From Yuukianura sp. NJ FZ-2021 (taxonomy: Eukaryota): a stretch of 64,000 nt of DNA. The notes beneath the pieces were generated by a model. That model did not search any database. It saw nothing but the letters and a program-made list of their open reading frames with translations, and was not told the DNA's origin. Numbering within the stretch: position 1 is the stretch's first letter; each line of letters starts with the position of its first letter. The stretch spans positions 6,882,001 to 6,946,000 of the forward strand of contig CM102287.1 of NCBI GenBank assembly GCA_046563655.1, read 5' to 3'. The position numbers and the translations under genes are program-made. Shown here piece by piece: positions 1 through 64,000 of the stretch.

Positions 1-1785
1 GAAGAAAGTTCTGCGGACGAGGGAAAGTATGAAACTCAATTAAACGAACACTCCCCTCTCCCTACAGTACACAATGTCCAACGACACAAAGATCCACACT
101 TTCTCTATGTTAGGTTAACCTAACTTCTAGAGTAGAAACTACAACGCTGGAAGAAGGGGACTTTCCTTGGAAGTGAAACTAAAAATAGGGAAGAGGGGAA
201 AGTGTAATTTAGTTATCCATGTGGATCTGACGTGATCTTTCTCTCCCATTTCTCACCATCTCAAGGGACATGAGCACATCAAGAGAAAGTCTTTTTTCCA
301 AAAATAGAAACTCAAAACTTATTTGAATTTTAAAATGATTCTTTCCTTTGAAGTTTTCAAAAAAAAAAGTTTTCAAAGTCAAGAGAAAGCGCTCAAGCCA
401 AACCTCAAAAAATATTTCCATATTTTATTATTTCAAGAATCGAAGGAATTAGTCACGGTCAAAGTTTTATTCGCGCGGATTTAAAAAGTCTTTGAGTTAA
501 GAGTTTTGGTGAAAGTAAAAATGTTACAAAATTTTGCAATGGAAACGTTTTTTTTTTAAGTAAGTTTGGAATGCTGAAGTGTCTGAATTTTCTGACGGAG
601 AGTGTTTCCTTTCTGAGTGTGGAAGCTGAGGAGAAAGTTGGTTTGAGATTGAGGTGGAAAGTGTTGATTTTGATTTATTTTGATTTTGATTGTGTTGATT
701 GTTGGAGTGGAAGGTGGCTGGTCAAACAAGTGGAGTTTCAGCATCCAATTTCCAGTGGCAGAGTCAACATGCCTCTCCCCTCTTCCTAAGTTAACGTTAG
801 GTTGGAGAGAAAGTTAGGTGCCGGAAGGGGATCGTGGAAATGGAGGAAGTTGGAATTGGAGAAAATAAAGTTGGATTTGGGCGGGAGAAAAGAGATAAGA
901 GAACTTTCTCCTTTCACTTGACTAACTTCAACTTCCACGTTCTCCCTTCCTTAATTGGAACCCCAACACCATCTCACACTTCCAACAATCCATAAATCAG
1001 ACTCAACCAGAAGATCCACACAGGCACTGGACCCACCTCCCCCTGCTCCACCCAACCCCCTCACTCAGCCCCACCCCACCCCCTGTCAGCCCAAAGTGAA
1101 AGTGTTGGTCCAACTCCGCCAATTACTCACAATTACCACCTCCATTCACTCCCAAAACCTACACTTAAAAGGAGATGAAAGAGAAAGCAAATAAGTAAAA
1201 ATACAATTCCATAGATCTATCACACAGACCAGCTGGTCAACAGCAAAGAAATCCACAGGCAAACAGTTCAACGGCAAAAAATCGACAAGCAACTGGATCA
1301 ATAAAACTTCAAAAAATGAGGCCTTATTTTTCTCATAAAAATGAATCAAAGATTTTGAGTTATTCGAAGGAAATTGTTGGAATTTGAAAGCAATTTTAGA
1401 GTTTTTTGGGGCCTTTACTTAGCGCTATGATTCATGGAAAATTGAATAGATTCAAATGACTTTCACTTTCCAGATTTTGCTTTAATTCCTCCATTGTTCT
1501 TGTGCAACACAGAGTGTTATAAGGGGAGGTAGAAAATGAATTTCCGTTTTCCGTTGGAATAATCAACTAATTCCGCATGTCAGTAGAAGGTGTTGCCACG
1601 AGTTCAATTCACAAATTAGCACTTGCTTTCCCCACACAAACTCCATTGGAATCCCAGAGGAAAGTGGAGAATAATTAAAGGGAGAGGAGACAACGCTGTT
1701 CAGCATCTAGCAGATGCTGCAGCGGACGCTGTTTCCAATTTTTAAAAAATGGAGAAAGCCAGATGTCACACTCTATCCCCGCCTC

Positions 1786-1839
1786 ATTCAAATTCACTCT
1801 CCATTTTCACTTTTTTAAAAATGGAGAGTGAATTTGAAT
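1786..1839. repeat. Perfect 22-bp inverted repeat with a 10-nt loop
   Basis: ATTCAAATTCACTCTCCATTTT (1786-1807) and AAAATGGAGAGTGAATTTGAAT (1818-1839). Confidence 0.9.
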
Positions 1840-3211
1840 TTCCACTTTCTTAAAAATTGCTTTTTCTAAATAAGTTTTCTCTCATACGTATCACTTTCAG
1901 GAAAAAAAAACAGTTTTTGGCATTCGACATTCCAAGTCCAAAATGTGTTTTTGATTGGACGGAATTTTTGGCGCTTTCACCACGTTTAGATTCAGTTTTA
2001 GGTCATGGAAAAACGACCTCTTGAGTTTTTTTTTTTTCGATACCAATCATACTGTTTTCCCTTGAGAATATTTCTGTTGGCAGGACTCATTTCTGGAGTT
2101 ATTGGTTGTGATTGAATGGAGCAACTGAGTCATGTCGAGACGTGGGGTCAGGGGCTTGGGTCCCTTGAGATAGGTTAGGTTAGGCATAGCTGGGAAAGCT
2201 GAAATGACAAAGTGAATGGGATTGGACGCACTGCACCACTTAAAATGACAACTTCAATCAGAGTCCTGGTGACACGGAAAGAGTCATTCCCAGTGTCACC
2301 TTGTCGTCACTACTAAGAAGACGGAGGTCATGACCTCCCTTGACGGAGAATCCAGAATAATTGAATGATTTCATTGGATGGAGACTTGGAATAGCTTAGG
2401 TAACTTGAAACTGGAATGCCCGTGGTGCCTGGAGAGAAAAGATAAGGAAATCCAGGAGGGCAATTACAGTGGGAACGCAGAGAGAAAGAAATCGGTCCAT
2501 AAAACTTTCACATCAATCAGCATCAACTCTCTCTGCTTTCTCCACATCAAGAAAACAGAACGCCACAGAAGAAGAATTGGGAATGTCAAAAAGTAAAAGA
2601 AACATTTGTGTTTGAACTTTCTTCTGGAACGGAAGGCTAATCACTGATACGCTTTGATGTTTTAGTGTTTTCAGAAATATACAAAGTCGTGGCGTATATG
2701 AACCGTAAAACCGCGACATCTACCGCCCGTACAAACTATGAAGCGGCTTTATTTTCGCGAATACGCACATTCTGAAATAAGTCAAGCTGGAAATCGTAAT
2801 GGATTTGATCGATTTGAAGCCTGCCGCCAATAAAGTAATCTCAACAGTTCTGTATATCTTCTTGAAAATGGACAATGAAAGTATTATATTACAAATTACA
2901 ATTAAAACTATTTATGTTGTACATCAATACAAGAATGGGCATTGTTATTATTATACTAAAATTCTTAAAATGTTAAATACTGTTAGAGTACTTATATTGT
3001 CCTCAAATTTTTAAAACTTGTAGTCCGCAACTGTACGAATGCAGCAAACTTAATATTACCATATTCTAAAAATAATTCACCAACACTATTCAAACAAGCT
3101 TAAATTATTGTGCGATCTTCAATTCTTGTTTAATTATCCACACCTATTATTCGTTTCTGGTAGTCGGTCAAATGGAAATGAACGTTTGGATCCAAATGCA
3201 TGACTTCCTGA

Positions 3212-3644
3212 TTAAGGAGTCACGGATTCTTCCACAAAAGATTCGACCACATCTCCGCTCATGCCATCATCTTTAAAAACAAATTCCAAATTATTAGATT
3301 TCAAAAATTTGTTTAAAAAAAAACGAAAATGTCAAAACAGCTTATTAGTATTACCACTCGCTTACCGTTGGTGGCAAATTCCTGTTCTTCAATTTCAATA
3401 TTCGCTATTTCATCACTGGCAACAGTTGAAGTGAAAGTGGAACTGATCGTCGCCTTGATATTATGCGTACTCTTCAAATGATGGTGAAGAATTGTAGTTG
3501 ATCCATCGTACATTTTATAAACTCTGGACTCTCCATTTTCATTGCAAATGTTGCATTGGGCTTTGCTTGATTCCCAATCCCTGAATTTGGTAAAGTAGTT
3601 CCATATTGCACTTTTGTGGGAACTCCGACGACGCTGTTTCCTCT
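3212..3644 (-). CDS. BED cassette 14, most distal (exons 3644-3366, 3270-3212)
   Basis: ttttcag|AG phase 1; KSAIWNYF..AQCNIC..GSTTILHHHLKSTH; donor G|gtaagc joins a short acidic tail exon DDGMSGDVVESFVEESVTP*. Confidence 0.85.
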
Positions 3645-3885
3645 CTGAAAACATACAAAACCAAACGATGTTTTAAAAACTATACATCCAATAAAATTAC
3701 AATATCGCTGCATCTTTTTTTTACACAAATGAATCAAACGATGCAAACATGTATACCATTTTTTCTGAAACGTTGTGTTTTATTTATCCAAAAAAAAAAA
3801 ACTATACAAATGAAGTACAGTAATGTAAGATACGCATGGAAAAACTCAAGAGAAGTGATATCTTAGTAAGGAAAATTTGGGAAAT

Positions 3886-4166
3886 TTATTGAAACTGTGT
3901 ATCAGTGATGTCGAAAGAGTCTTCAAGTTTCGTCGAACTGTCGTGCAGTAACGCAGCAATTTGCATTGTGTGCTCCGTAGTGGTGTTGTGTCTCTCGTAA
4001 TGTTGTCTGAGCCTTTCCACTTTAGAACTGACGAGTGTATTGCATGTAAGACACTTTTGCTTCAACATTCCGTCAACTACTACTTCTGTGAATTTAGTCC
4101 AAACCGGATGTCTCCCTCTCGCGGGTCTCCTGACTTCTGGCCTGTTAGGCCAGTCAAAAATTTCAT
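3886..4166 (-). CDS. BED cassette 13 (related to cassette 3)
   Basis: gttgcag|AT phase 1; GRHPVWTKFTEVVVDGMLKQKCLTCNTLVSSKVERLRQHYERH..FQ*. Confidence 0.82.
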
Positions 4167-4430
4167 CTGCAACGGAAAAAAAGTTTCAAAGTAAAACAAG
4201 CGTTTTTTAAAGTTTCTCCAAATTTTTAAACGTATTATGTAATTAAAACTGTTAAACAAATTAAAACTAATGGAAAAATACCGCCGTAGTCGTTTCATCC
4301 GAATGAACGTCACTAGTTAGGATAAACTAATATTTATTGCTATATTTTGCTAACAAAGGTGATCCAAATAACTGTTTAATTTTTGAAAAAGTGATGTATT
4401 TACATTGTGTTTTAAAAGTTGACAAAACGT

Positions 4431-4712: not shown

Positions 4713-5023
4713 CTGTTTAAATTCTATTGAATTTTTAACTTTTTAGTAACAAACAATCTTCGATCTCATTTTACATTGATTGTGTGATTTGCGGCACTTT
4801 GGAAATATTTCAACTAAGCAGCAGAATATTATACCAGAATCAGAATTTAACGAAGATTAGCAATTCGCTACGCAGAAAATAGAACTTTTAATTACAAGCA
4901 TCAATTATCAATTTGTAAATTACAAACAATAACTGGTAAATTAAGATTCGAAACGTTACATAATACAATTCAAACATTTAGTAAATGTAGAAGTGTGCAT
5001 GTAACAGTGCTAACACTAAATTC

Positions 5024-5350
5024 TTATTCAGGAATGCTTGTCGAGTTTTCCAGTGTTCCTGGATGAAATGTGTTTAAATGGCGTCGTAGGTTCGAAGTAC
5101 TCCCGTCAGCCTTAGACATTCTGTACATTCTGTGAAAACAACAATTCAGACATTATAGGAATCTGCAGAATTACTAACAAATAATTTATTGCAATTAACT
5201 AAAAGATACCCTTAATTTTTGAATTTTAAGCTTACACATCTGGACAAATGTTACAAACTGCAAATCGTTCTCCCTCAATTTCCTGTTTACTGAAGGAGTT
5301 CCAAATTGGATTACGAGTTGAATAACTTCTTGAACGAGGTCCCTTCGAAT
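5024..5350 (-). CDS. BED cassette 11 (two exons)
   Basis: ..TRNPIWNSFSKQEIEGERFAVCNICPDV/MYRMSKADGSTSNLRRHLNTFHPGTLENSTSIPE*. Confidence 0.88.
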
Positions 5351-5651
5351 CTGTCCAAATTCGTATTTTGAAGGTTTAGCAATAAGAATAACATTCGAAT
5401 TATCATTTCAATTTGATTAAGTTATATTTCCGACACCTTGGGAAAATATCAAATAGAACTTTTCAAAAATCAAATAACGATTCGCAATTCAGTATTCCGT
5501 AAAATGGCAAAAAGGCTTTTATTATAAACATTGCAAACAATTGCTCACCTGAGAAGTAAAGCGCTAAACCTTACAAGATACACAGAGAACCAAAGGTGTG
5601 CACTTATTTCTGACAACAAATTTAAAATTTTAGGAAATGTTAATTGTTAAT

Positions 5652-5957
5652 TCAGTTTTCCAACGATCCGGGATGAACTTTGATGAGATGCCGACGCATG
5701 GTTCCAGTACTTCCGTCTTTGGGCATCTTGTACATTCTAACAAAAATAAATTCAGGTATTAAAAATTAACCTTCTAATTAGAATTTAGTTAGGTAAATTC
5801 GTATAAACGTTAACTTTGATTTTAACTTACACATCGGAACAAATACTGCAGACTGCATGTCGTTCTCCACCAACTTCCGTGAGACTGAAGAACTTCCAAA
5901 CTGGACTCTGATGTTCGAGACTTCTTTTTCCAATTTGTTTGGCAAAACATATCGAAT
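5652..5957 (-). CDS. BED cassette 10 (two exons)
   Basis: ..HQSPVWKFFSLTEVGGERHAVCSICSDV/MYKMPKDGSTGTMRRHLIKVHPGSLEN*. Confidence 0.88.
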
Positions 5958-6411
5958 CTGTTCCATATTTGTTTCAAAAATTTGAAGTTATTTTTTGTCC
6001 AGAAATTATATTTTACTTAAAACCTTTAATTCACGCCCTCCCCCATCCCATTTAGAGCCGCGTCGCTTTGGTCAAGGATTCGGGTAAACGAAGAATAAAA
6101 AAAACATATCCAATTTTTGTATTGCACTAAACTTTATTGATTTTGTCAGACAAAAAATACAATGTATAAAACAACATATTTTTTAACTAACAGCTAAATA
6201 GAGAGTGGTTAAATAGCAAACAAAGTAAATACACGGATCTTTATCAAACATTTATACACGAATCTAACAGAATTTAATATAAACAGCATTTACTGTAGTA
6301 GTGTTTTGTATATATCATCCGCGTAATATTTACAATTTTCAGAATGATTTCAAAATTTTTTGATTTCATCAAAATTATTTCTGGGATGGGTGCTCCACAG
6401 AAAGGAAAGCA

Positions 6412-27422: not shown

Positions 27423-45660
<18,238 letters not shown>

Positions 45661-47625: not shown

Positions 47626-48830
47626 ATGTTGTCCAAAATTTCAAGTCAATACTTTTTTCTAGTCTTAAAGAGAGCAAGTCAAACGTACCAATCGCCGTTG
47701 GTGTGGGACTCAACGCAGCACAAATTCCGCTTGAACGAATCCACTACCTACGTAGTACTCTCCTCGCTGGTACTTGCGCTCGATGCATTAGGTGCCACCA
47801 CCGTTCTGCCGCTGGCGATCGTCAATCATAGATTTGGGTTCTCACCTGTCTTCACTTGTGTCCTGATTACCGTGTTTCCAATGTCAACATTCAACGTCTT
47901 TTTGGACTTGTTTACCAGTCACTCTGCGTTGGAGATATTATGCCTTTTAAACAACTTTCTCGTCATCTTTCAGCCGTCTACTGGTAAAATATTGCTAATA
48001 TTTCAATAAATTGTTTCTTTAAGTTTAATGCCTAAAGAATAATAACAGGCCTATACTCAATACCTGAAGATGTTGCAAAAGAAGTCGACTGGTTGGTGAA
48101 AACCATTTGTCAATTTGGCGTAATGTTGGCAATATCAGTAGTTCTCAATTTATGCTGGTTCATCTCCGACTTTTATAACCTGAGTGACGCCATCTTGACC
48201 TACTTGTGGGGAACGCCAACGCCAACGGTGTTGCCGGTACTGCTCACCACTCAAGCCCTATTGTACTGCTGTATATTGGTATATTTGTCGACACACAAGT
48301 GGAACGTGTATTCCACCCTCGCTGTTGTGTTATTGCATCAGGCAAGGTCCAACATTACTTGGATGTCACACCGACAGTTGGACGTGAGAAAGCGCATACA
48401 AGGGTACAAGTCAATCTACCTCTTCACAAACTTGGCCAACGAAGTTTGGGCCGCGGTAATCCTTGCTACAAAGATTGGCCTGGTTTGTTTTAGTTCATGT
48501 GGTTTTACCCTGTTCATCATCAAGAAAATGTCCTTGTTCGGATGGGCCATGCTTGTGGTATCCATCTTGCTGTTGATAATAGTAAATTTCATTCTTGTGT
48601 TTTCGGCAGAGGTGTACGAACGGTCCGTAAACTTCATTGGGTTGTTACGACAAGACAGGGTATGTCGACCAGAAAAATTTTTTCAGACAATGATTGAATC
48701 GATAAGACCATGTCGAGTTAACTGTGGCTCGCAATATTTCATGGACAGAGGAGTTCTAGCGAACACCAACCATGCTATTCTAGTATACACTATCAATAAT
48801 GTCTTAACGTTTAAGACATTGAAACTTTAA
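47626..48830 (+). CDS. Divergent 7TM chemoreceptor (gustatory-receptor-like), two exons
   Basis: About 380 aa with multiple hydrophobic helices and one short intron near 47984-48048; C-terminal IRPCRVNCGSQYFMDRGVL..ILVYTINNVL. Confidence 0.65.
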
Positions 48831-49612: not shown

Positions 49613-51140
49613 TTAATTGTTTGTTGCCTTGAGTTGTAAAATAATTATGATGTAGGACAGCATAGTGCTCATAACCTATTTAATACCACGAGTTAATTTC
49701 AATAATCAATAAAAGTTTGAAGCAATTTGCCAAAGTAGTTTGAGTTTCTGTATTCACCAAATTCAAAATTCTGTTTACCGAGGGTAGGAGTCCAAGATCC
49801 ATCCGAAATATCCCGTTGGCTGTGAACTTCCATTTCCAACTGCGGAATAATTTAAGAATCACGTAAGCCTAGCAAAAATGCCAAGAAAAAAGTTATAGAC
49901 ACATTTTTTTTTTCGAAATCGACCACCTCATGGAAATAAACTTGACTGTTGACATGAGAGTAGAGTTTCATATCTTACCTCATTCGGGCGTGCATTGCCG
50001 ATGTCATGTTGTAGTTTGAAATTTATAAGATGAATGTGGGCTCTCTCTTGGGCATTCCGAACCTAAGAATAAAAATATTTCACAAGTTTTAGTTTTTGTG
50101 CGGCAACATTTAAAGTATTGTTGCCTTACCGCTCCTTGCATTAAACTTCCCAATGTAGTCAACGCTACTATCTGAACTGCATAATCCACAATGTAGCAAA
50201 TGTCATATACTAATCTAAACAAGTCATCCGAACTTAAGCTGGATAACGCCGTGACGGTATACAGAGCTCCGCTAACCAGAAGTGCTCCAGCGTATAGCCC
50301 ACCAACTCTTTCAAATTTCTTGAAAATCGTTTGTAACTTTTGAACTCCTTGGAAATTTTTGTCCACAACAGCCCTCAGTTGGGCCAAGGTTTTGCGACTA
50401 CTCGGTTGCTCCTCGTCATTGGTTGGCGTCATTAGTTTGTCGTACCTGGCGACTGTCATCAACGACTTGTCAACTAAATTTTCCAGAATGGCAACCAACT
50501 CTCTTCCGCAAAACGTAACGAAAGAGAAGGTGAAGAACGAAGAAAATAAGCCAAAGACGTCTGTAACGACAGCCAGGAGAAAAACGAAGGCATTCATCCA
50601 TGGATTCGCAAGCGGTTCAATGTCGTACCTGAACAAATAGAAGTCGACAAGTTGAAGGACGTAAAATGCCGCTGTGCCGAAGGAAATGACACATCCGACC
50701 CAATAGGACTTGCCCTTTGATCTACCCGCAGGATGCTGATTGATAAAGTTCAAGATTTCCACTGCATCTGCGCAGTACATAGGGGAAAGAATGCGCAGAC
50801 TGACATCTGTAGTGTAGTAAAAGATTCCTCCATTGAGAGCATTTGTCAAAAATGAAGACAAAGGACTCGTGATACGCATTCTAGGAGTGTAGATTATGAA
50901 TACGATCCCCGCGACTATGGTATTGATACCTAGCAGAAGAGACCGAAATGATGCCGTTTTGGATTTGCAAAGTTCACTTCTGAATGGATTTTCAACTGGA
51001 AATACGCCACTTATCCAGCCACTTAGGAGGAAGCAGTGGCGCCAAATATTGGACAATGCAACTTCCACTCCCATTTTCGGATATAACACTACTCTATAAC
51101 TGAATATTTTCAACCTCCATCCTGGACTACTCATCGACAT
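49613..51140 (-). CDS. Gustatory receptor
   Basis: Long first exon plus short 3' exons; WKFTANGIFRMDLGLLPS/VMSTMLSYIIIILQL matches the GR TM7 TYhhhhhQF motif. Start may be the internal Met (MGVEVAL). Confidence 0.85.
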
Positions 51141-51981
51141 GTAAAAGTATTTTTCAAAAATCTACTTTTCGAAAACAAAAACATATTTCGAAAAATTGGA
51201 CTCTTTGGTGAAAGTAACTCCTGCCACTCCCTTCAACTATACGCTTTAATGAGATTCAAAATTTGCCGCTTTTGTGTTTTAAGTTTTAACATAATTAAAA
51301 AAAAACAATAGAATTTGTCAAAATGAAATTAATTTCGTAATGCTTTCTTTTAGTTACTTTCTTTACAGAAGGTGGAGCAGGTTTATTTGAAATTTCGGTT
51401 TTGCTAGAAAACGATGTATTTCACGTTAATGCAACACCGGGACTGTAACTAATCGACTTTCGTTGATGTCCTTTTTTCAATTTTTTAAACAAACATTGAA
51501 TGGGAATAGTTTGGGGTCAGAGGTCACTCTACTAGGGCGAAAGCTTCTCCTTAACATGTTGTTCTCAATTAACTTTTCCCATTAATCCTCAACGAATTCA
51601 GCCCATTTCAACGCTCTTTCACTATTCAGGGTTACATTTGACACTTTGACCATTGAGACACTTAGTAAACGCCTCAGGGGAAGGTAACCACAATTTGCTT
51701 TGAAAACTATTTTTACAATGAAAAATGTTCAAACCGCAATAACTTCCACAAATCTTGTCTGCTTGTCCAAAATTAATAAGACACAAATTCTTATTCATTT
51801 AACATTACATAGTACATTACAAATTCCTAAACCTATCGCCTTCTCAAAAAAAAAGTTATCAAACGAAAACTTTTTTTAAACAAACCTGCTCTACCCTCTG
51901 TGCAAGTAGTGTTTACTGTGTAGCATCTCAAGCACATGTATTCGCCGTTTATTCAGCACTTTCCATGATTTACATCAGTTT

Positions 51982-54900
51982 TTAGAAAACCACGGTCATT
52001 TCCGTTCTGTTTCTGCTCAGTTGATCATCAGCGGTAAGCATCACCTTTTTTTTTTAGAAAAAAATTAAACAAATATTAACAACTTTTTAATTCACTGGAG
52101 AGTTTTTGTAATGAAAAGTGCGCTTACCATGAAAGTAAAGAACCAGGCGGGTGCAGCCAGCCAATGGTACATATCAAGTGCATCGTAAATCCCGACGATA
52201 CAAGGTGTGAACTTTTCCTGCAAAAATATTGCAGGCAACTCCCACGCATCCAACGATGTTACTAAAGCAGTCAGCGACAAAACCCAGAAAAGCACAGCAA
52301 GAACCAAGTAGATCAGTGGCTGCCACGAAGTGAACTTTGAAAACTCGTGGTGACAACCCTGGACAATCATGCACAACATTCTTAGCTTTTGTTCTGCCAT
52401 AAACATTACTGTGTGATTCCTAAAAAGTATATTTACCTTATGAATTATAAAGTATGAGATGAAGTCGAGATGAAAGTTGGCTAGTACAAGGATGTACATG
52501 CGCGTAGTGAAATGATTCTCCGTCATGCCCAGCCAAATGAACGTGAGGATTCCGACGTTGAGCAAAAAACGTAACACTGTCCAGAATGTCCTTCGTTTCC
52601 ATTCAGGGTAAAACAGTGGTAGGATATTCCAAGAACAAAAGACGCTTCTGAAGAGCGCTGTTGGTGCGTTGACTAACTTTGTATTGTTTGCAGTTGGTTG
52701 ACACGCTGAAACGCTTCTCGCTCTGCGTTTAGGCGTAGGATCTGCAACAAAGCAGGAAAGTATTTCTAACACTTTTGTTCACTTGAAAATATTCAACATT
52801 TTGTAACATTCTTACCTTCCATTTCAGTTTCTGCTGCAGTATTGGGCGTTGGGTGGACATCCTCCTCCAAGTACCCGGCGGAGTGGAGGATCAATACAGT
52901 AAGCTGAATCCAGAAGCTAAGGAAGACTGAAACGACAATTTGAAAAGTTCTGTCGGTGATCAAATACGCCGCTGTGATCACCCCAATCACCAATCCGGTT
53001 GACAGAAACGTAAAGTTGCTGTTGCATTAAAGAAATTTAAACGTAACTCAACAAATAACAAAAGGGAAAGTTTGTCCAGAGTATACTCACTCGGTGACCA
53101 TACAAGGATGTCTTAGGTTGTAAATCTTAATTTGGCACAGAACGACGATGATGAACATGAAAGTTAGTCCTGGAAAGCAAAAACAGATTTCATTGATTAC
53201 ATGTTGTTTTAAAAAGGAAAAGTTACACCTTCTTCCACTGTTTTTTACCAAAGAAAGTCGTGTCCTTGCTGGGACAAGTGTTGTAAGCCATTTTCATTAT
53301 TCCAACAAACATTAGCGCGAATCCCAGCGTATAGAACGTTCCGAAGTTCTGATACGCTCCGTAGACCGTTCCTGTTAGGTTGACCCGACGGAAGCGACAC
53401 CAACGCCACGGGTTAGCGTCCAAATTTTCTCCGAACATTGCTCCGCCATGAACCTCGCTGACGACCAGTTTCGTGGCACGGACATGAACCAAAACCATGA
53501 AAGTGATTCCGGCTATGACAAACCCAATGCAAGAGTAGACATGGTTGAAGCTCACGAAAATCCATACAGGATAGGAACAAAAGTAGTTAAAGTGGCAAAT
53601 ATCCAGGTCACCAGTCTTGGCAAACTAAAAACAAACAAACTTAAAATTGATTAGTTAGTAAGGGGGTTCGTAAAATGAGTTAAAAATTTGTATTGTCCAT
53701 AAAATAAAAGAAAAAATTACGCCCTGGTGGGGAATCTAATAAAATTAAACAAAATTTTGTATTTTCATAAAATGTAGAAAAAAATTACTCCCCGGCGGGG
53801 AATCGAACCCCGATTTCCCACGTGACAGGCGGAGATACTGACCATTATACTACCGAGGACCCGGTTGGAAGCTCGAGCTCAAATTCTTATACATGACTTA
53901 CACACTTCACAAAATGCGGAAAGAGGAGAGATGAGATAACACAGTGCGTTTAAAAAGCATGTACAAACTCCTCACTTATCTGTTAAACCAAACGTTTTTG
54001 AAATCACAACTTCCTCAAGCACTTAATATATTCAAACTATTTAAATTGATTTCCGCATTTAGTTTACTCGCTAACCTTTTTTAGAACACACATTTTTCGG
54101 TTTCACTCAAGACTCAAGTTAAAATCGTTTCACGTTTGGGAGTGGGAAACGGGAAAGTAAGAAAAAGTTCAGATGTGGGACGTGGAAATTCGAACTTTCA
54201 CTCTGGAAAATCAATAGGCAATGCCAGCAATGAAAATTGAAGCTACATGACGTGACGCCTAGCGAATTCCAGGCTCTGCGATTGGAAGTGAAGCTAAAGA
54301 AATAAATTCAGTCTTACGTTAGTTAGAGTCAGTGAAAGCAGAATGACTGGAAGGCCATAGAAGAACACAATCGTAAGAATTGTCCAAATGTATCTGTACG
54401 AATTGGCTTTCAAGTACTTGTACAATTTCGTTTCAGCAGTGAAACTCTCAACGCGCAGACGCGTCTCACAGTAGTTCACAGGACAAAGTCGATTTATAAA
54501 TGCAGGGGTGAATTCTGGATTATGAGCACTAGGCAAAAATTATAAAGTTGAAAATTCAAAATTCTACTCTCAAATCTCTCAAATTAAAATAGGGTGGACT
54601 GTCATGCGCATTTGCCACATTTACCCGACATATTGATGGTGACAACATGAAAACATCAAGTGGACGAGGAGGATCACTAGAAAGTGGATGAGGATGGGAA
54701 TCCAGAAGGATGGTATAACCACTTGATCTTCGTCTGGTGGCCCCAGAATCTGAAACGAGATCGTTTCAGACTTCGAAGCAACGTTTCTACTAACGTGCGA
54801 ATTCAGGCGTGGATCAGGCAGGAACAAGAGGATGAAGCCTTCCGGATAAGTTTCTTTCTGAAGTTTCAAAATCAAAACACTATATTTGATTAAAACGCAA

Positions 54901-55959
54901 AAAAGAAAGTACTTTTTTGGTGAAAGTGAAACTAACGCGGACGATGAGCGCCGTCCTTTGTGACATTGTGTGCCAGTGTCCACTGTATTGAATATTTGAC
55001 AGTTCATCATTAACAGGGCACTGCAATGCAAAAAAAAATCATCATTTCGGAAAACATAACGGTGCTTTTTTTCTATTTACCCCTGGCTTCTGAATGGAAA
55101 TCACTGTTTTTGAAGCAGTAGTGGAATTTGCAATGATTTTCACAAACGAAACATTTTGAGGAAATCCAAACCGGTAAAATATTGGGGCTGTTGAGGAAAC
55201 ATTATGGGCCACTTTAGGTTCGTCATTCAATCTGCGCACAATTTGTTCAAAAATGTTTAATTTTTGTTTTCATGTCTCGTTTCTGATTGGTGTAAGAAGT
55301 GAATCTTAAATAGTACACAAATAATTATGTATACTTACTTTATGATGTATCCCTTCCTCATGGACAGATTGAAGGAGTAACGGACATCGTCCAGGTTGCA
55401 AGTGGAAACAGTTATGAAAACGGAGGAGGACCATTCTTCCGGTCCAAGGCACAGGTTCCGAGCGCCATTGTATATTGGTCTGAAAAATGGCGGGAAATTT
55501 GAACCGAAAAGTTTATTGTTATTCCGTTGTTTTCTAACTTACAGATTTGTCGCTTCATGACTTTGTGGAAGGGCGATCGTTTGCACTTCATTTCTTTGCC
55601 TGATGATAAAATATACGGGACACCTCTCGTTGGAATTCAGAGCCGCGTTGAATTCAACACGAATGTAGGAGTCCTGAAAACGTGTACAAAAATTAAATAT
55701 TAAGATATGTAACTATTATAGTTTTTTTGGTAACTGTACTAACGTTTGTGTGTAACTGAGGAATATTAAACCCGTAAACGTTTTGGAGGCTGATGTTAAC
55801 TTTGCCCTCAATCCAAGTATTTGTTTGGCTTTCTATAAATTCCAGTTCCAAGGTCACTCCATCTTGAACTTGAGTCAACACAATAAGGGAAACTAACGCA
55901 ACCACACCAATCCCCTGCGCCAAAAGTGGCGTTGACAATTTTGACACTGTGCGTAACAT
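51982..55959 (-). CDS. SID-1 transmembrane family protein (divergent)
   Basis: Signal peptide and N-glycosylation sequons in the ectodomain; YIWTILTIVFFYGLPVI; FNHVYSCIGFV; YGAYQNFGTFYTLGFALM; AYNTCP; IYNLRHP; YFIIHK; C-terminal MLTADDQL..VVF*. Confidence 0.85.
53788..53859 (-). tRNA. tRNA-Asp(GTC) in an intron of the SID-1-like gene
   Basis: TCCTCGGTAGTATAATGGTCAGTATCTCCGCCTGTCACGTGGGAAATCGGGGTTCGATTCCCCGCCGGGGAG, 72 nt, with A and B boxes and a downstream oligo-T terminator. Confidence 0.93.
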
Positions 55960-56829
55960 TGGCAAAAATGGTCAAGAGACACAGCAAACATAAATTTGAA
56001 TTTGTTCACTTATCATAATGCACAGTTTAAGCACATTTTGTGTGTCCTAGTTTGACTTTATTGTAGTTTAATGTAGTGTACAAAAACCTAAAGTTTATGA
56101 TGTTTTGTTTTTTGCTTGAAGAGAAGACAACTTTGCCGAAATAATATGCGAGTGACGCCGTCCATGTCGAGACGTTTGTAGTAACGGACCATAATAGCTT
56201 TAAGTCTAGTATTGGACTGAGCAGTGGAAAATTCAGTTAGTTTAATCGTGGTGCAACAACCAAGGTTTTATTTTTATTTTTTGCTGACATTGGCATAACT
56301 AATGCAAAGTTATTCTTTTGAGTGTAGCAAGCAAGTGCCGGTCCAGGGATGAGGCGAGGGGTGATGTTTTAAGCTTGCCAATTTTTCTGGAGGAAGAGGG
56401 AGGGTGGGCATAGGAATTCATGGCTTTAACGCTATTTTCCAAGCACTCACAAATGCAAACGAAAAACATAGGTTGACTCACGTATTTATCTTTCTCTGAA
56501 TGATGAAGTTAGTCATCTCAACTTGGATTGGTTTTTATACACCAATTCTCGGTAGTAGCTGTGCTAAGCATTTTTAAACAGAAGTGGACTGATTAGTTAT
56601 TTACACAGTGTAAAGTGTAAATTACACTTTCGAAATATTCGAAACACACGCACGAGTACGTGAGAAAACCTAAAGCGAAGTTGTAAAAGCTTAAAAGCGA
56701 AAAAGCACAAAAGAAACAGCCAAGAAAGTTTAGTTGTTTTTGTGAATTATTTTTGACTTGGATGGATTCCTGGATGTACGCAGAGCTAAGCCAGCTTTGA
56801 ATCGTTTCAGTTAAATTTTTTTTTCGAAG

Positions 56830-58538
56830 ATGACAAGAGGCGGATTCGACTGTCCAATTTGCCTTGACTTTTATTCTGGTAAGATTAAACTTATGATTGA
56901 TCCATCAAACTAAGATTAAAGATCAATATTTGATGATATTGAGAAGATGTGTTTACTAAAGTGTTCCAAATTTTTTCGAACTAAATTCAAACGTTAATTT
57001 TTTTTAATTGTCGATTGCAGAAGAACCGGACGAGGATTACTTCGTGTCTACGAATTGTTCCAAGAAACCAACTAGCATAAACCCTCTTCAAGCCCAAATC
57101 AGTCCAGATTCTGCAGGTCACGTCTTCCATTACAAATGTCTCAACAGAAGCGTACGACTGCGGGAAGGAGGAGCTTTCAACTGTCCAATTTGTCGCCATC
57201 GTAATCACTTCGTTACACTACGAAAACTGAACAACATTGACGTTCAACCCAAGCCGGATGTGAACATATTGTGAGTTTAGTTCAGATGGACTTAATAAGT
57301 GTTAGGATATTTTCTTCATGCTGATTATATTAAACGCTACAGTGACTACGAATTCAAAATTGTCGTACTTGGAAAATTTAAAGCCGGAAAGAGCTCTATT
57401 GTCAAGAGATTTGCAGTAAGATAGTTTTATAAATTGAGACTAACTTTACAAATTGCGATGTACTAATTTTCACTTTCTATGTTAAACTTTAGCGAAACGT
57501 CTTCTCTGAAGAATATGAAATTACAATCGACTGTGATTATGTAAGAACATATTGACTTTTACTTTTGTTAAATATTCGCGGTTTTTCATTGGAAGTGCTT
57601 TAAAAGCGGTTGTTTACATGGATGCGCAATTGGTGCTAATTGAAGCTTTGCTTTAAACGCGGGGAAGCAAGAGTACGTTGCTGGTGAATTAAAACTGATC
57701 TTGAATGAGGAATAGAGTGGACCAAGCCTACTAAAATTAAACTTGACGTTGCAATATTTCCGTACGAAATTCGCAAGTTATGAAATAAGTTGTTTGTTTT
57801 CAGTTTGCCAAGTCTGTCCAAATAGGAGACAAACGGATAAAGCTGAATTTGGTAAGATTCAAATTTAGTAAAATTCAAAAAACAGCAAAAATTCTGTAAT
57901 TTTTAATTTTTAAATTGTTGCTTTCTGTAGTGGGACACTGCAGGTAGGCGTTGCGAATTTGAATTCGCAGTATTTTCAAAACTTACCAAAAACCTTAATT
58001 TAGATGTACAACTTTTTTTGTATTCTGAGAAGGGCAGGAACAGTACCGAAGCGTAGTTACCACTTATGTACGCAATGCATTCGGAATGATATTCGTGTAT
58101 GATATAAGTGATATGTCGACGTTTCGTGCACTTGAAGACTGGATTTTATTTGCCAACGATAATGGTCCGAAGGAAACCAAACGAATTATCGTAGGGAACA
58201 AATCGGATTTGGAAGAACATCGAGAGGTTTCGACTGCAGAGGCGGAGGTAAGAGAACATTTTGAATTCGAATTACAATTGCAAAAAAAAAAGTAATAATA
58301 GTAATGTTTTTGTTTTGTTTTGTAGGATTTTGCAAGGACCGTTGGATATCCATTTCTTGAGTGTTCAGCCAAGGAAGCCACAAATATTTCAACGATATTC
58401 CGAACACTCACGGCGGAAATGCTTGACGAACCAAGAATTCTGAATGCAGCAGACAAATTGTACAACTCGATGAGACTAGAAGAAGAGTTTAAAAAGTTGC
58501 CATTCACGGACAAAATAAAAATGACTTGCTGTCCTTAA
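56830..58538 (+). CDS. RING-H2-like finger fused to a Rab-family GTPase
   Basis: CPIC..AGHVFHYKC..CPIC spliced in frame (TT|gtgag..ctacag|T) to FKIVVLGKFKAGKS, WDTAGQEQYRS, VGNKSD, ECSAK and C-terminal TCCP*. Confidence 0.85.
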
Positions 58539-58849: not shown

Positions 58850-60897
58850 ATGAACACGGTAAAACAACTTCCTTTTACTAAAGAAAAGTTAGAATTGAAT
58901 ATTTAAAAATATTGAAAAATTTGTTTCAGTGCGTCGAAGATTGGGGAAGCTGCAACCCATTCGATCTCGTGAGGAAGTGCTGTTCTGGTCAATGCAGCAG
59001 TCCGACCATAAGAGGAGCCCCGTCCGGAAACTGCATACCAGGCGACACTCCAAAACCAACCACACCAATTCCAAAAGTACGTTCTGTTGTTTTCCATTAT
59101 TTTAAAAATGAAATTTCAGTCTAAAATGTTTATTTTATTAAACGTTTTTTCCTTGTTAGGATTGTATCGAAAATGGCGAAGTATGTAAAAGCGATGGATC
59201 GATGGGATATTGTTGTTCCGACTTTTGTTTGCAACAACGAACGTCCGAAACTGGATTTTGCAGGGATCTCAATGCACCGACTGTCACAACGAGCACAATT
59301 AAACCACCTACCGATCGTGTCGTGGTACCAAGCAGGCCAATCCCGAATGGCACGAGCACTTCCAAACCAACGCCTTATGATGGAGGAAGCAATGTTGGAT
59401 TGGTCGTTGGCCTAACTTTTGTGGCCATCGTTATTGTCGGACTCCTCGTCGCTGTTTTGTTCTTGCTTCTCAAAATGAGAAGAACAATGATGACAAAAGC
59501 AGACGTGTATCGCTTTCTGCGTGGTGACCCTGGACAGGGTGGTCGTGACCTTCCAGTACACGAGAAAGTGGACAACCTGCCCTACGACGCATCATACGAA
59601 ATACTACCATCGCGATTCACAATTGGTTAGTGATGCCAGCAAATCAAACATCAGCATATTTTAACAACTTAGGAAAGGAGTGAAGGATTTTCTTTGTTTT
59701 CAGACAATCACATCCTGGGAAGCGGACAGTTTGGAGTGGTGAAGCGAGGAAGTATTAGACTACTGCCCAATAGTGATGCACTGCCAGTAGCAGTGAAAAC
59801 GACGGCAGAGGGCGTGGAGCTTCGATATTTCAAAGCTCTTTTGTCAGAACTCAAACTTATGATCTACATAGGTAGTCACGAAAATGTCGTCACTCTGCTT
59901 GGAGCTAACACAACAGACATGAAAATGGGTGAAAATAGTTTTTGAAAAATATTTGATGAAATACTTTCAAAAAAAATTTTACAACGTTACGTGGAATTTG
60001 ATTTTAGGACGAGCCTATTTGTTCCTAGAATTTTGTAAACTTGGAAGCCTCGAAAGCTTTCTCCGCAAGAACAAACACAGCTTCACAGCAGTCGGTGAAA
60101 GTTCAAGGTACCCAAAAATTTTTGTGCGAAAATTTTTAAAACGTGAGAAAAAAAATTAAGAATTAAATTTTCACACACTTTTTATCCATATGTAAGACCG
60201 TACGCCAACGATCCTAAGTACCTAACAGTCGAAAGCTCTGAACATCCTTTGACGACCTTCGACCTCTATCACTGGTCTACCCAGATTGCACAAGGATTGG
60301 AGTTCTTGAGTACCAAGAAGGTTCGGGAAGTGAAAAGAATTTCAAAATTTGTGCCCAGTAATCAAAATTTCATTTTAGGTCGTTCATGGAGATTTGGCTA
60401 CAAGAAATATTCTACTTGCAAGTCGCTCGCTGGCTAAAATTAGTGACTTTGGCCTATCTCGCAGGGTCTACGACTATACAAACTATGTCAAGAAACACCA
60501 AGTCAGAAAAACCTTAATTTCAAATTACTCAATCCTAAAATTTTTAAAAGATTCAGTTACTTCTTAAATATTTTGAATTTAGGAACCACTTCCATGGAAG
60601 TGGATGGCTATAGAGTCACTGCAGGAGTTGACTTTCTCTACACAGTCTGACATATGGGGTTACGGTGTGACCATTTGGGAAATTTTTTCACTTGGAAGTA
60701 CTCCGTACCCAGGGCTCTCTTGGTCATCTAACTTTGTTCAAGAGGTCGTCAAGGGCCTCAGACTGCCACTTCCTCCGCATGGAACTCAAAAGCTGTACGA
60801 GCTTCTACTGGAATGTTGGAATTTAAATCCAGCACTGCGCCCGCGCCCTGAAAATATCCTAACAACCTTGGCATCGATTAACTCCACTCCTTCGTAG
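58850..60897 (+). CDS. Receptor tyrosine kinase (PDGFR/VEGFR-like kinase) with two knottin-like extracellular modules
   Basis: TM helix [27 protein letters not shown] juxtamembrane; [38 protein letters not shown]. 5' end and signal peptide not resolved. Confidence 0.88.
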
Positions 60898-61811
60898 GAT
60901 ATTAATAATGGATATGGATAAAGGATGTTAATAATGATCGTCGTTCTATTTGTTTTTGAAAATGCTCCTTTCAAAATAAAATTTCTCCAGGGATGGATTC
61001 TTTAGACTTTAGGGAAGACTTTAGGGAATGTTTCGTTTTAAAGAGCTATTTCAGTTAATTTTTTTTTTGGTTTTTGGATGATTGTTCGCTAGCTTGTTTC
61101 CAAAACGTCAACTTATGTCAGCGACATGTGCAATACTTTGATTTTACTTCTCATTTCAGCATTCAGTTTTGTTGACAGCGGCATGTTTTAGTCGAAAGCT
61201 TGATACTTGTCTCAACGATTAGTAATTCTGTGAAATGCGAAGTTATCATTGAAAACTTTGATACAATTTTCATTCATTTGTACTTCGAACCCGAAGAAAA
61301 AGTGTGGGAAATGTTTGGGATGACCTCTGAGCTCAGGGAGTGACCGTAGGGGCATAGTCCACAGGACAAAAAATATATTCCCCTCATGATTCTGAAAAAC
61401 TTTCATAGAGGTCATTTTTGAGGTCGTCAGGGGTACCAACTTGCCCTCTTGGACTTAGAAAAATTTTGAGTCAAGATTTTGAAAAAAATGGGAAGGGGGG
61501 ACCCCTGGGGTCAAAAAATTTTTTTTGCTCCAAACGTTTGAAACCTCATGAAATGTGAAAAAAACGAAAAAAAAATTTTCAAAAATTTTGCCCAAAAAAC
61601 TTAGAAAATTTTCGACTGCGTTAAAGTTGGTCCATTCCACCCGTCATTTGCCCTGCGACAAGGTAATCTTAGTTAGTCAATTACTGATTAACGTCGAGAA
61701 TCACCTGTGCTGGGACACTGGGACAGGGATGTGGATGTGGAATTCAGAACTTGGTGCTACCTGCTACGTGTTTCTGGTTTGAAAAATGGTTTGATTCATG
61801 TTCTTTTTCAG

Positions 61812-62005
61812 GTGAATTGGAATTGGAGAACGTACCACTAAAGAAAAACATTTTCAGAAGTTGGGGATTGCCAATTGAAGTTACGTCAGGAATTGTTGGA
61901 AGGATTAAAATTGAATTCAATCGTCTGAAATACTTCCGTAATGAGCCGGTTCTTATCACTATCGAGAATGTCTACCTGGTTGCAGTTCCACTCAACTTGG
62001 CTGAG
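61812..62005 (+). pseudogene. Isolated exon resembling the VPS13 chorein-N domain
   Basis: ttttcag|G..GELELENVPLKKNIFRSWGLPIEVTSGIVGRIKI..EPVLITIENVYLVAVP..|gtagga; no convincing neighbouring exons. Confidence 0.6.
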
Positions 62006-62088
62006 GTAGGACACATTTACACTCTTTCTAAATCTGAGTGTTTAGAGCGTAAGAATGTTGTGTGTCGTTGTTCGGCGGAAATAAATAT

Positions 62089-64000
62089 CTACCTCTCGTG
62101 GAAAATGAGTTCATGTGGCTTTGGGCTAACGACAACGGTAGGAATGGGAGTCAAACTAGGCGGCGGACGTCCTGGGTTTGGTGTGACACGAAAATTTTGA
62201 AAAATACTAAAAATTTCAGAAAAACTGTTAAATTTCAAGCCACGACTTTTCATAATTTTGGTAACAAACAAATACGTGTAGTGATACCTGGTGATAAAAA
62301 GAAAGAGTTCCTCTTTTGCTAATTTCTCGCCTAGAATTCGAACGACAAAACATTTAGGAAATGATAGAAAAACTCTTCACTTTTTTGATTACCGAGGCAA
62401 ATTCGTTTTCCAAATGAAAATGGAATAAATGATTGGTGTGACTTGTTCGCAGTTCCGTCGGGGTTTAGGAATCTCTCCGGCCGGAAAACTCCCGGGTCGC
62501 CCCAAACTTCGGGATCGTGCATTGCAGCATAGAGATTTGGCGTGAAGACTGTATCCTTTGGGATACGATACCCACCAATGACAACGTCTGTTGTTGTGCT
62601 GTGCCAAATTGAAAGAGGAGCAGGGGCGACATATCGAAAAGCCTCCATCGTGACACACTCCGTATAAGGCATGTCGGGTCGGTCGCGTAGTTCTGGCGTT
62701 CTTTCGAAGCCAACCACCCTCGAAATTTCGTCAAACATTTTCTCTTGAATATCCGGAAATACAGCCATCAAGAGCAGAACCCATGTCAGCATTGTTGATG
62801 TCTAAACATATCACATCACACGTTAACAGTAACAAAAGTTAAAATGTAACCAAAACTAACCGTTTCTGATCCTGCGAGGAACAAATCTTCCAAAGATTTT
62901 ATAACTGACGCTTCTGAGAGTTTTAAAGTTTTTGTTAGTTTTCAATTTCTGTAAATGAAAAGTTTGACCTTTGACCTTTACCTCCTTCATCCTTGTAGAA
63001 AGAGGAACCTGGGTCGGTCGTTCGCGCCACTTCTTCGATCAAGGCGTCCATTAAATCCCGTGGTTCTCCTGCAACAAACGTTGCCTTGTGATTCCTGTAC
63101 TCTTCGGCGACGAAAGCATTCACAGCATTGTGTCCAGAAATAAAAGAGTTGTACCCAGTCCACTCCGAAAACCATTCGCACAACTTTGGAAAGACGAATA
63201 TAACGGGGGAGGAAATTTCACGTAAACTATTACATAATGGATAAATTGTAAAATTGAATTTTGAATAACTTGGAAGTAGTAGTTAGTACTAAAGTAAACT
63301 GTTTTACTTGGTCACTAGTTTGCAGGCTTCGGCAAGAGTCGGGTCGTCCTGTGATGATCGACTTCCGGCGCAAATTTTCCAGAGAGCTTTTACTATCGCT
63401 GTACAAAGCAAAACCAAAGTCCTTTTTCCGTGAAAAATTACTTAACAATACAAAAAACTGATTAACCAAAAAACCTCGGACAAAATAATACGGCTGAAAT
63501 GGCACAAAGCACAAAGTTTTCATCATTGAAAATTCAAATATAATTTAAATAAAATAAGTAAAATACTTTAAATTTAAAAAATGTGAGCCATGAGATCACT
63601 CCATGACATGACTGAAACTTTAGTTTAAAAAAAATAAAAGTGGGTTTTACCAGTGCTAAAAAGCCCATCCGTCACAACGGGGACTCCAGTGCGTACGCGT
63701 ATTCTTTTTAAGAATTCTTGGATTTCTTCTTGGATGATCCCCTCCATAGAACTTTTTCCAAAACCAAAATCTCCCAAACTTTTTAGTACAAATCGACGTT
63801 GTTCGTTCCAGTGCCGTAACTCAGCGAAAAGAATTCCACGACAATATTTTGCTCCCGGTTCAGTTCTTTCCAAAAATACAGGGAATTTTGGTCTTCCCGA
63901 CAATACTGGATCGTTGAGGCATTGCTTAAGCAGTTTGAGGTCATTGACCACAATAGAACGGACTGATCCATAGTCGACGCTAAAAATGCCGCCATACTTT
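62089..64000 (-). CDS. Cytochrome P450, CYP2 clan (5' end outside the window)
   Basis: WNEQRRF, DFGFGK, AGSETT, EAFR (ExxR), PERF and heme motif FSFGKRICLGE; last exon ends ELIFHER*. Confidence 0.95.

Follow-up and report, generated by a model that had tools for sequence, protein, structure and literature searches.

A probable fusion of a RING-H2-like finger to a prenylatable Rab GTPase, maintained in one reading frame in two species

Rabs are almost always single-domain switches, and the known links between GTPases and ubiquitination run through an ARF (TRIM23), indirectly through Rab40 with its SOCS box and Cullin5, and through Rab7, which is served in trans by Rabring7. Can a Rab also share one chain with a RING finger, and would such a chain bring its own ubiquitin ligase (E3) to a membrane? 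The question is raised by a gene in a 64,000-nucleotide (nt) stretch of Yuukianura sp. NJ FZ-2021 (GenBank assembly GCA_046563655.1, contig CM102287.1, forward-strand positions 6,882,001–6,946,000), referred to here as the window, in which a first-pass annotation had described a RING finger joined to a Rab GTPase at positions 56830–58538. Judged from its sequence, the gene is most likely a real, selectively maintained RING–Rab fusion that has been found so far in two species and that pairs its domains in a new way along known lines. The explanation that we favour for the whole, with a probability of about 0.6, is a fused RING-H2-like/Rab protein that would deliver its own E3 module to a membrane.

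Assembly of the exons by their coordinates, followed by translation, gave eight exons on the plus strand (56830–58538), with a coding sequence (CDS) of 909 nt that specifies a protein of 302 amino acids (aa). All seven introns, which measure 142, 72, 77, 263, 79, 89 and 78 nt in order, have GT–AG ends, and the GC content around the gene is 33–38%. The protein runs from a CPIC motif through a long first loop that contains Cys29, then SAGHVFHYKC and CPICR, to a 24-residue linker, the Rab domain and a tail of about 35 residues with TCCP at its end. Exon 1 (56830..56878, +) supplies the ATG and the first zinc-ligand pair within CPIC (Cys8 and Cys11) and ends in phase 1; exon 2 (57021..57270, +), which is 250 nt long and ends in phase 2, contributes the rest of the RING-H2-like finger, with Cys29, His50, His53, Cys56, Cys71 and Cys74 followed by Arg75, and a conserved linker. 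The RING/Rab junction falls at intron 2 (57271..57342, +; GTGAGT...CAG), which splits a Phe codon as TT|T. When the exons were read and assembled anew, every coordinate of the first-pass annotation proved correct, and its central claim, that canonical splicing joins the RING in frame to a complete Rab, is upheld by the seven GT–AG introns, the 302-aa open reading frame (ORF) and a second species in which the order and phases are the same.

That second species is represented by a metagenome locus. Scanning metagenome contigs with the RING exon returned eight loci (L001–L008), one of which, L001 (10,225 nt examined of an 18,231-nt contig), matched the RING exon over residues 1–82 with 63% identity (E 5e-33); its exon 2 is likewise 63% identical to exon 2 of the window by BLASTP (E 4e-39). 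A tblastn comparison of the spliced model with this locus recovered all remaining exons, in order and on one strand; the Rab exons matched at E 5e-77, the RING exon at 61% identity and exon 1 (4810–4857) in 14 of 16 residues, an agreement well beyond what chance would give. The L001 gene has seven exons (4810–4858, 4999–5227, 5482–5554, 5621–5668, 5734–5781, 5862–6089 and 6169–6384), introns that are all GT–AG, a CDS of 891 nt and an ORF of 296 aa that is intact and has TCCQ at its end. Exon 1 is 49 nt long in both genes, five of the six L001 introns match window introns in codon position and phase, the RING/Rab junction again splits a Phe codon (TT|C in L001), and reading through the exon-2 donor meets a stop after one codon in both species. 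DNA similarity between the two is restricted to exon 1, the 3′ part of exon 2, exon 3 (81% identity of this region to L001 5477–5560) and exons 7–8; it begins exactly at the ATG, and none was found in introns 1 and 2 or upstream. Synteny is kept as well, with SID-1 upstream on the opposite strand and a gene for a knottin–transmembrane–tyrosine kinase protein downstream, which backs our treatment of L001 as a deeply diverged orthologue. Loci L002–L008 were rejected as RING–Rab orthologues, all seven being ordinary RINGs that share GHVFHYKC and have no Rab.

The window and L001 proteins are 78% identical over 295 aligned codons, at 72% in the RING part and 81% in the Rab part. The proportions of nonsynonymous (pN) and synonymous (pS) sites that differ, with Fisher tests on changed versus unchanged sites, were 0.167 and 0.879 for the RING part, residues 1–99 (pN/pS 0.19, p 1e-23), 0.125 and 0.928 for the Rab part (pN/pS 0.135, p 1e-69), and 0.103 and 0.949 for the linker, residues 81–99, which is 79% identical (pN/pS 0.109, p 4e-8); the 12 aligned codons of an insertion in the finger, considered below, gave 0.289 and 0.791 (pN/pS 0.365). 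Across all segments, the tail included, pS ranges from 0.79 to 1.10, which means that synonymous sites are saturated; the synonymous rate (dS) is therefore not estimable, and the pN/pS values are upper bounds. Since pN lies far below pS and DNA similarity is confined to exons, the RING exons are coding and have been kept for a long time in frame with the Rab. This codon comparison indicates that the RING and Rab halves are under purifying selection as one reading frame which, RNA aside, is the strongest evidence presented here for a single fused product.

The Rab domain begins in exon 3 (57343..57415, +), which carries the P-loop GKFKAGKS (about 57371–57394; GKFKAGKT in the orthologue), and continues through switch I in exon 4 (57493..57540, +), read from the translation as TIDCDY (TEDCDY in the orthologue), and the strand before switch II (KLNL) in exon 5 (57804..57851, +), where 12 of 16 residues are the same in both species. 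Exon 6 (57931..57943, +) is a 13-nt micro-exon that encodes WDTA and the first base of a Gly codon; exon 7 (58033..58247, +), 87% identical to its counterpart, completes WDTAGQE with switch II (GQE) and adds G4, GNKSD (DTAGQ and NKLD in the orthologue); and exon 8 (58326..58538, +) ends the protein with G5 (SAK in both), the hypervariable tail, TCCP (Cys codons 58527–58532) and a TAA stop. Motifs G1–G5 are thus intact in both species, and the catalytic Gln is present. With Pfam, which was run on single-exon peptides and not on the spliced protein, exons 7 and 8 scored 58.6 and 22.1 bits for Ras (PF00071) and the L001 exon 77.1 bits, against a cut-off of 21.6 bits. The di-cysteine tail reads TCCP in the window and TCCQ in the orthologue, CCX being an accepted Rab prenylation motif. 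The description of a complete Rab domain with a CC tail therefore stands, as does the earlier observation that switch I reads TIDCDY where TIGVDF would be usual, the form T-[IE]-DCDY being conserved with the orthologue.

The micro-exon owes its existence to intron 6 (57944..58032, +), an 89-nt intron that is present in the window and absent from L001, and removing it yields exactly the orthologue's uninterrupted WDTAGQEQYRS, so that the 13-nt exon proposed in the first pass is borne out. On this comparison intron 6 is a lineage-specific gain or loss that occurred after the window and L001 lineages split. It sits at CAG|G between two GCAGG flanks and, close to its 5′ end, contains a 7-bp palindrome (GCGAATT..AATTCGC); it could be a recent intron gain. 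Neither another copy of intron 6 nor a second copy of the RING–Rab gene was found in the window.

Which Rab this is can be narrowed only so far. Among solved sequences exon 7 found 230 matches at E ≤ 0.001; the best 60 of the 230 belong to the Rab family, a few of them generically named, and comprise Sec4, Rab3, Rab8, Rab14, Rab2, Rab11 and similar proteins, with Sec4, Rab3 and Rab8 the best relatives. The solved relatives of exon 8 were Rab1A/Rab1B (20 of 25) and Sec4 (5 of 25). The RabF motifs, IGVDF, KLQIW, RFRSIT, YYRGA and LVYDIT, are matched in part, by IDCDY, KLNLW, QYRSVV, YVRNA and FVYDIS, and the orthologue has the same variants. Rabs usually carry the P-loop GDSGVGKS and the switch I TIGVDF; because GKFKAGK[ST] and T-[IE]-DCDY are conserved across both species, we read these departures as features of the family and not as decay. 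Nine Rabs from the protein library are 41–49% identical to exon 7 and 33–40% identical over the whole Rab domain, and since the latter is the level seen between different Rab subfamilies, they point to no one named subfamily.

The finger departs from the textbook at one position. The RING-H2 consensus is C-x2-C...C-x-H-x2-H-x2-C...C-x2-C, and seven of the eight canonical zinc ligands are in place and conserved in both species. A local profile built from seven RING-H2 domains among the library hits scored residues 7–17 at 3.3 bits and residues 47–76 at 32.2 bits, and both in the alignment to this profile and in a MAFFT alignment the third-ligand column is occupied by Ala48, as the first-pass annotation had noted, and by Thr in the orthologue; a conserved Cys stands 19 residues upstream, or 13 in L001. 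As the residue is Ala in one species and Thr in the other, the third ligand would already have been lost in their common ancestor. Between Cys29 and Gly-His50 lies a 19-codon insertion (57059..57115, +), with Ala48 on its last codon; its counterpart in L001 has 13 codons, with Thr at the equivalent place. The length of the insertion varies and its end, SPDS, is conserved, as are Asp45, four residues before the ligand His, and the Cys that precedes the insertion, which is kept in context (STNC in the window, ATTC in L001). Removal of the 19 or 13 residues would leave an ordinary ...C-G-H-V-F-H... finger, and AlphaFold2 predicts the insertion to be disordered (pLDDT < 50 at exon-2 residues 16–30). 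Ligands three and four of a RING cross-brace hold one zinc together, and the geometry should therefore tolerate a loop at this point; Cys29, or alternatively Asp45, probably completes zinc site 2 across the looped-out insertion. A 60-nt in-frame GT–AG segment within exon 2 (57057–57116) was considered as an extra intron whose loss might bring back a canonical finger, and was rejected: its removal would give Cys-His without a spacer, removal of the equivalent 42-nt segment of L001 would swap the Cys for Trp, and the segment is conserved as coding sequence (SPDS).

Beyond the ligands, both species keep three residues that we take to contact the ubiquitin-conjugating enzyme (E2) or to be activating in RING E3s, namely a hydrophobic one within the first C-P-x-C, the final CPxC's Pro and an Arg directly behind the final Cys; the Ile of CPIC is conserved, and the second CPxC of L001 contains Met. 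Exon 2 holds the second half of the finger only; 13 Pfam families matched it at E ≤ 1 and all but one are of RING type. A profile of the two species' RING sequences had the RNF4 RING as its best solved relative (E 3.7e-4), and the ten best named clusters for exon 2 in the ESM Atlas are all RING clusters, with a top score of 0.94 and 158 of 256 shared features, below the 170 that is typical of members of the same family. In a Foldseek search with the exon-2 model the top 10 rows were all RING E3 domains, at a best E of 0.37 that is not significant.

Is the combination already on record? Compared with longer proteins in a library of 5.8 billion, the RING exon gave seven candidates, none at E ≤ 0.01. 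The corresponding search with Rab exon 7 placed 9 of 32 candidates at E ≤ 0.001 (41–49% identity), and these nine are all of plain Rab size (176–223 aa) with no RING family among them. A phmmer search of 1.84 billion representatives with the RING exon returned six matches at E ≤ 0.001 (1.4e-4 to 7.8e-4), namely four RING proteins, three of them with a double RING-H2 and an IQ motif, and two large bacterial-type proteins; none of the six has a Ras domain. Neither the 26 pattern stretches that a Rab profile picked out of prokaryotic genome contigs nor the 57 that a RING profile picked out of viral contigs were confirmed. The protein libraries may under-represent this animal group, the orthologue having been found only as raw metagenome DNA, and a gauge of database coverage using the neighbouring VPS13 gene gave one 82% match and was uninformative. 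The literature searched by full text held no description of a RING–Rab protein, with the proviso that supplementary architecture tables (PMC8358228, PMC4327156) may list some, and a search by the exact architecture name found the Rabring7 paper only; the passages that came up in PMC4327156 and PMC3166285 held nothing of relevance. These library and literature results fit the remark of the first pass that no standard RING–Rab family is known.

Whether the two halves form one product depends largely on how the Rab could be translated without the RING. In-frame Met residues of the window protein occur only at 1, 179, 188, 264, 281 and 298; Rab exons 3–6 have none, the first after Met1 lies beyond switch II, and the remark that the Rab has no separate ATG is correct for the window. 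The length of exon 2 is 1 mod 3 in both species (250 nt in the window, 229 nt in L001), and skipping it would break the Rab frame, because exon 3 has to be entered in phase 2 and exon 1 leaves off in phase 1. With no Met between Met1 and residue 179 and an exon 2 that is not a multiple of three, the Rab as modelled needs the RING exons. A rival account holds that there are two products, a RING-only protein from exons 1–2 and a Rab from an unrecognised first exon, the in-frame join being an artefact. It can point to an ATTAAA within intron 2 and to the Leu codon and stop that are met in both species when the exon-2 donor is read through, as TTG TGA in the window and as TTG TAA in L001, although a phase-2 GTRAGT donor should by its consensus alone be followed at once by a stop. 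It can also point to short phase-2 ATG-to-GT segments upstream, the best of which end in GAA|GTTAGT (56500–56507) and AAA|GTGTTC (56947–56960); yet of the 24 such alternative first exons between 55500 and 57340 not one ends at a GTRAGT donor or falls within DNA conserved with L001. Further points against it are that exons 3–6 lack Met and that the phase of the junction, its split Phe codon and the linker (at 79% identity and a pN/pS of 0.11) are conserved, and we consider two separate products quite improbable. Less probable still, to the point of carrying almost no weight, is a decaying or unexpressed pseudogene copy with a relic open frame. The 89-nt insertion does break the WDTAGQE codons relative to L001, but it has GT–AG ends and its removal restores the conserved protein exactly; the best conserved exon has no protein-library relative above 49% identity, against which stand complete ORFs in both species without stops or frameshifts, strong purifying selection and G motifs that are all intact. 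One fused RING–Rab gene product is, on these comparisons, highly probable.

What that product does is less certain, and several observations weigh against a fused protein that acts as a membrane-delivered ligase. The gene is known from two species only; retention of intron 2 would give a 99-aa RING-only protein in both, so that separate isoforms are possible; and L001, unlike the window, has in-frame Met inside the finger, at 36, 52 and 66. The P-loop GKFKAGKS has bulky residues in place of the Ser-Gly that is usual in Rabs; at the sites that correspond to Ras Gly12 and Gly13 such residues may slow GAP-assisted hydrolysis, and the GTPase cycle may be atypical. In the finger, the canonical eight-ligand spacing is broken by the Ala or Thr at the third position, and exon 2 lies under every Pfam RING cut-off in the window (best zf-RING_2, 22.2 against 27.3 bits) and below it in L001 too (22.5 bits). 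The AlphaFold2 model of exon 2 is poor (mean pLDDT 61.8, pTM 0.46), none of its 97 Foldseek matches reached E ≤ 0.001 (best E 0.37), and VIA-align placed 46 of 96 chains at Z ≥ 2 and none at Z ≥ 5, with a best Z of 3.6. The rival that draws on these results accepts one fused gene and takes the finger to be degenerate and non-catalytic, a zinc finger or U-box-like fold that a lineage-specific Rab would use as a module for binding, dimerisation or autoregulation. Loss of the canonical third ligand in both species, a low-confidence insertion of 13–19 residues within zinc site 2, Pfam scores below the RING cut-offs, weak structural matches to RING domains and library matches of the RING exon that are generic RINGs only (E ≥ 1.4e-4) all favour it; set against them is the retention, despite synonymous saturation, of seven of eight ligands, Cys29, Asp45, the CPxC Pro and the post-Cys Arg, together with a RING pN/pS of 0.19 that is near the 0.135 of the Rab, all of which fits a working finger without proving catalysis. 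The non-canonical zinc site thus leaves a substantial chance that the finger is non-catalytic, and we put a working E3, given one fused product, at slightly less than even odds; the degenerate-finger account as a whole we judge unlikely, though far less so than two products or a pseudogene.

Under the favoured explanation, a fused protein that brings its own E3 module to a membrane, the Rab part would cycle between two states, one with GDP in the cytosol bound to GDI and one with GTP on the membrane held by its prenyl anchor, and this cycling would deliver the RING module to one membrane compartment. There the RING would recruit E2~ubiquitin and ubiquitinate either itself or proteins bound to the Rab switch regions, and the result would be a single-chain counterpart of Rab40–Cullin5 or of TRIM23. 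By likeness to these two systems, a membrane-delivered and nucleotide-gated E3 mechanism is plausible. A bolder form of the proposal, which we offer tentatively, is a self-contained 'Rab-E3', a geranylgeranylated Rab with its own catalytic RING in which GTP loading on one membrane would place the ligase and the switch regions would choose substrates; it would define a new Rab subfamily of an invertebrate lineage, with its own switch I (T-x-DCDY) and P-loop (GKFKAGK) and a third zinc ligand moved across a looped-out insertion.

The RING–Rab gene belongs to an invertebrate-type animal, and the gene content of the window is of animal type, with SID-1, a 7tm_3 G-protein-coupled receptor (GPCR), P450, a receptor-type tyrosine kinase and VPS13. 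The homologue of SID-1, a double-stranded RNA channel, occupies 52092–55971 (−) in the window and 249–4284 (−) in L001 (40–70% identity), head-to-head with the RING–Rab gene and with start codons separated by about 870 bp in the window and by about 530 bp in L001; because this arrangement is conserved, the two genes may share a bidirectional promoter. All 13 solved relatives of a SID-1 exon are SID1 transmembrane family members 1 and 2, and a tRNA-Asp (GTC) gene at 53788–53859 (−) lies within the SID-1 span, where it is presumably intronic. The downstream gene, at 59160–60897 (+) in the window and 6828–8507 in L001 (47–70% identity), encodes a single knottin (Pfam Antifungal_pept, 47.1 bits) together with a stalk rich in Ser, Thr and Pro, a single transmembrane helix and a tyrosine kinase, and is by its domain content a receptor kinase with a tiny knottin ectodomain.

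Farther away, Pfam matches mark a VPS13 N-terminal exon (61688–62200, +), cytochrome P450 exons (62334–63999, −), a fragment of a 7tm_3 class-C GPCR (44382–44870, +) and a BED zinc finger (3316–3672, −) that may be transposon-derived. Two ORFs of multi-pass-membrane appearance, at 48036–48830 (+, 264 aa) and 50004–51161 (−, 385 aa), match no Pfam family and may be lineage-specific receptors. The segment 33417–33967, without a Pfam match, is open in all six frames, with ORFs of 160–181 aa on either strand, a pattern suggestive of low-complexity or simple-repeat DNA.

If the fusion is as we propose, a conserved and direct RING–Rab would be a 'Rosetta stone' for the idea of a Rab as the targeting and substrate-selecting subunit of a ligase, and would offer a compact, genetically simple system in which nucleotide-state gating of membrane ubiquitination could be studied. 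Its finger is a test case for how far RINGs tolerate the relocation of a zinc ligand. Should the finger be inactive, the gene would still represent a new, selectively maintained multidomain Rab subfamily.

Several known proteins resemble one or the other half, or the combination. The finger shares the pattern CPIC...ST.C.GHVF...CL..S...CP.CR with the RING of RNF4, a similarity that is weak and limited to the finger. RNF4 is a C3HC4 protein with a normal C-x-H third and fourth ligand pair and SUMO-interaction motifs, and has no GTPase. On the side of the Rab, only three Rabs possess an additional domain according to PMC3425129, Rab44 and Rab45 being two of them, and the relevant parts of this source and another describe Rab44, Rab45 and Rab46 as carrying, like the present protein, N-terminal accessory domains on a C-terminal Rab (PMC7818423, PMC3425129). 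Their accessory domains differ, being calcium-binding EF-hands and coiled coils with no RING. Rabring7, also called BCA2 or RNF115, is introduced in the portion of PMC3738576 that concerns it as a RING-H2 E3 isolated as a Rab7-interacting protein, so that a RING-H2 ligase partnered with a Rab is known and the gene in the window looks like a fused version of such a pair. Rabring7 itself stands alone as a protein, and has a BZF zinc finger at the N terminus and a canonical RING-H2 at the C terminus; it was not among the sequence-search matches of the RING exon, and no specific relationship was found.

A parallel in layout is TRIM23, which is described as a member of the TRIM proteins that is active both as an E3 ligase and as a GTPase (PMC12075517, PMC8358228) and is regarded as an unusual RING-plus-ARF protein (PMC8358228). 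The same source reports that single lineages have repeatedly recruited BTB and F-box domains, both linked to ubiquitination, to GTPases of the ARF family (PMC8358228). TRIM23/ARD1 consists of a RING, two B-boxes, a coiled coil and, at its C terminus, an ARF domain; like the protein proposed here it unites an N-terminal RING E3 module and a C-terminal GTPase of the Ras superfamily in one chain, an arrangement in which a nucleotide switch can couple to ligation, and Foldseek and VIA-align both place its RING among their weak structural matches to the exon-2 model. The differences are that the GTPase here is of Rab type (exon 7 scores 58.6 bits for Pfam Ras against 20.2 for Arf), that exon 2 has no Pfam B-box match and no coiled coil was detected in the protein, that anchoring would be through a predicted C-terminal geranylgeranyl group and not through an N-terminal ARF helix, and that the finger is RING-H2-like with a displaced third ligand.

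A parallel in mechanism is Rab40, which forms an E3 with Cullin5 through its SOCS box, so that a prenylated Rab is itself part of a ubiquitin ligase and its Rab domain can select substrates, as set out in the pertinent parts of PMC9070665 and PMC8129794. Rab40 has no catalytic RING of its own, and the SOCS box that recruits Cullin5 follows its Rab domain. That SOCS box also recruits Rbx2. Pfam found no SOCS box in exon 8, Ras being its sole match at E ≤ 1 (E ≤ 0.01 for L001). Here the RING-like finger precedes the Rab, and any ligase activity would be direct and contained in a single chain.

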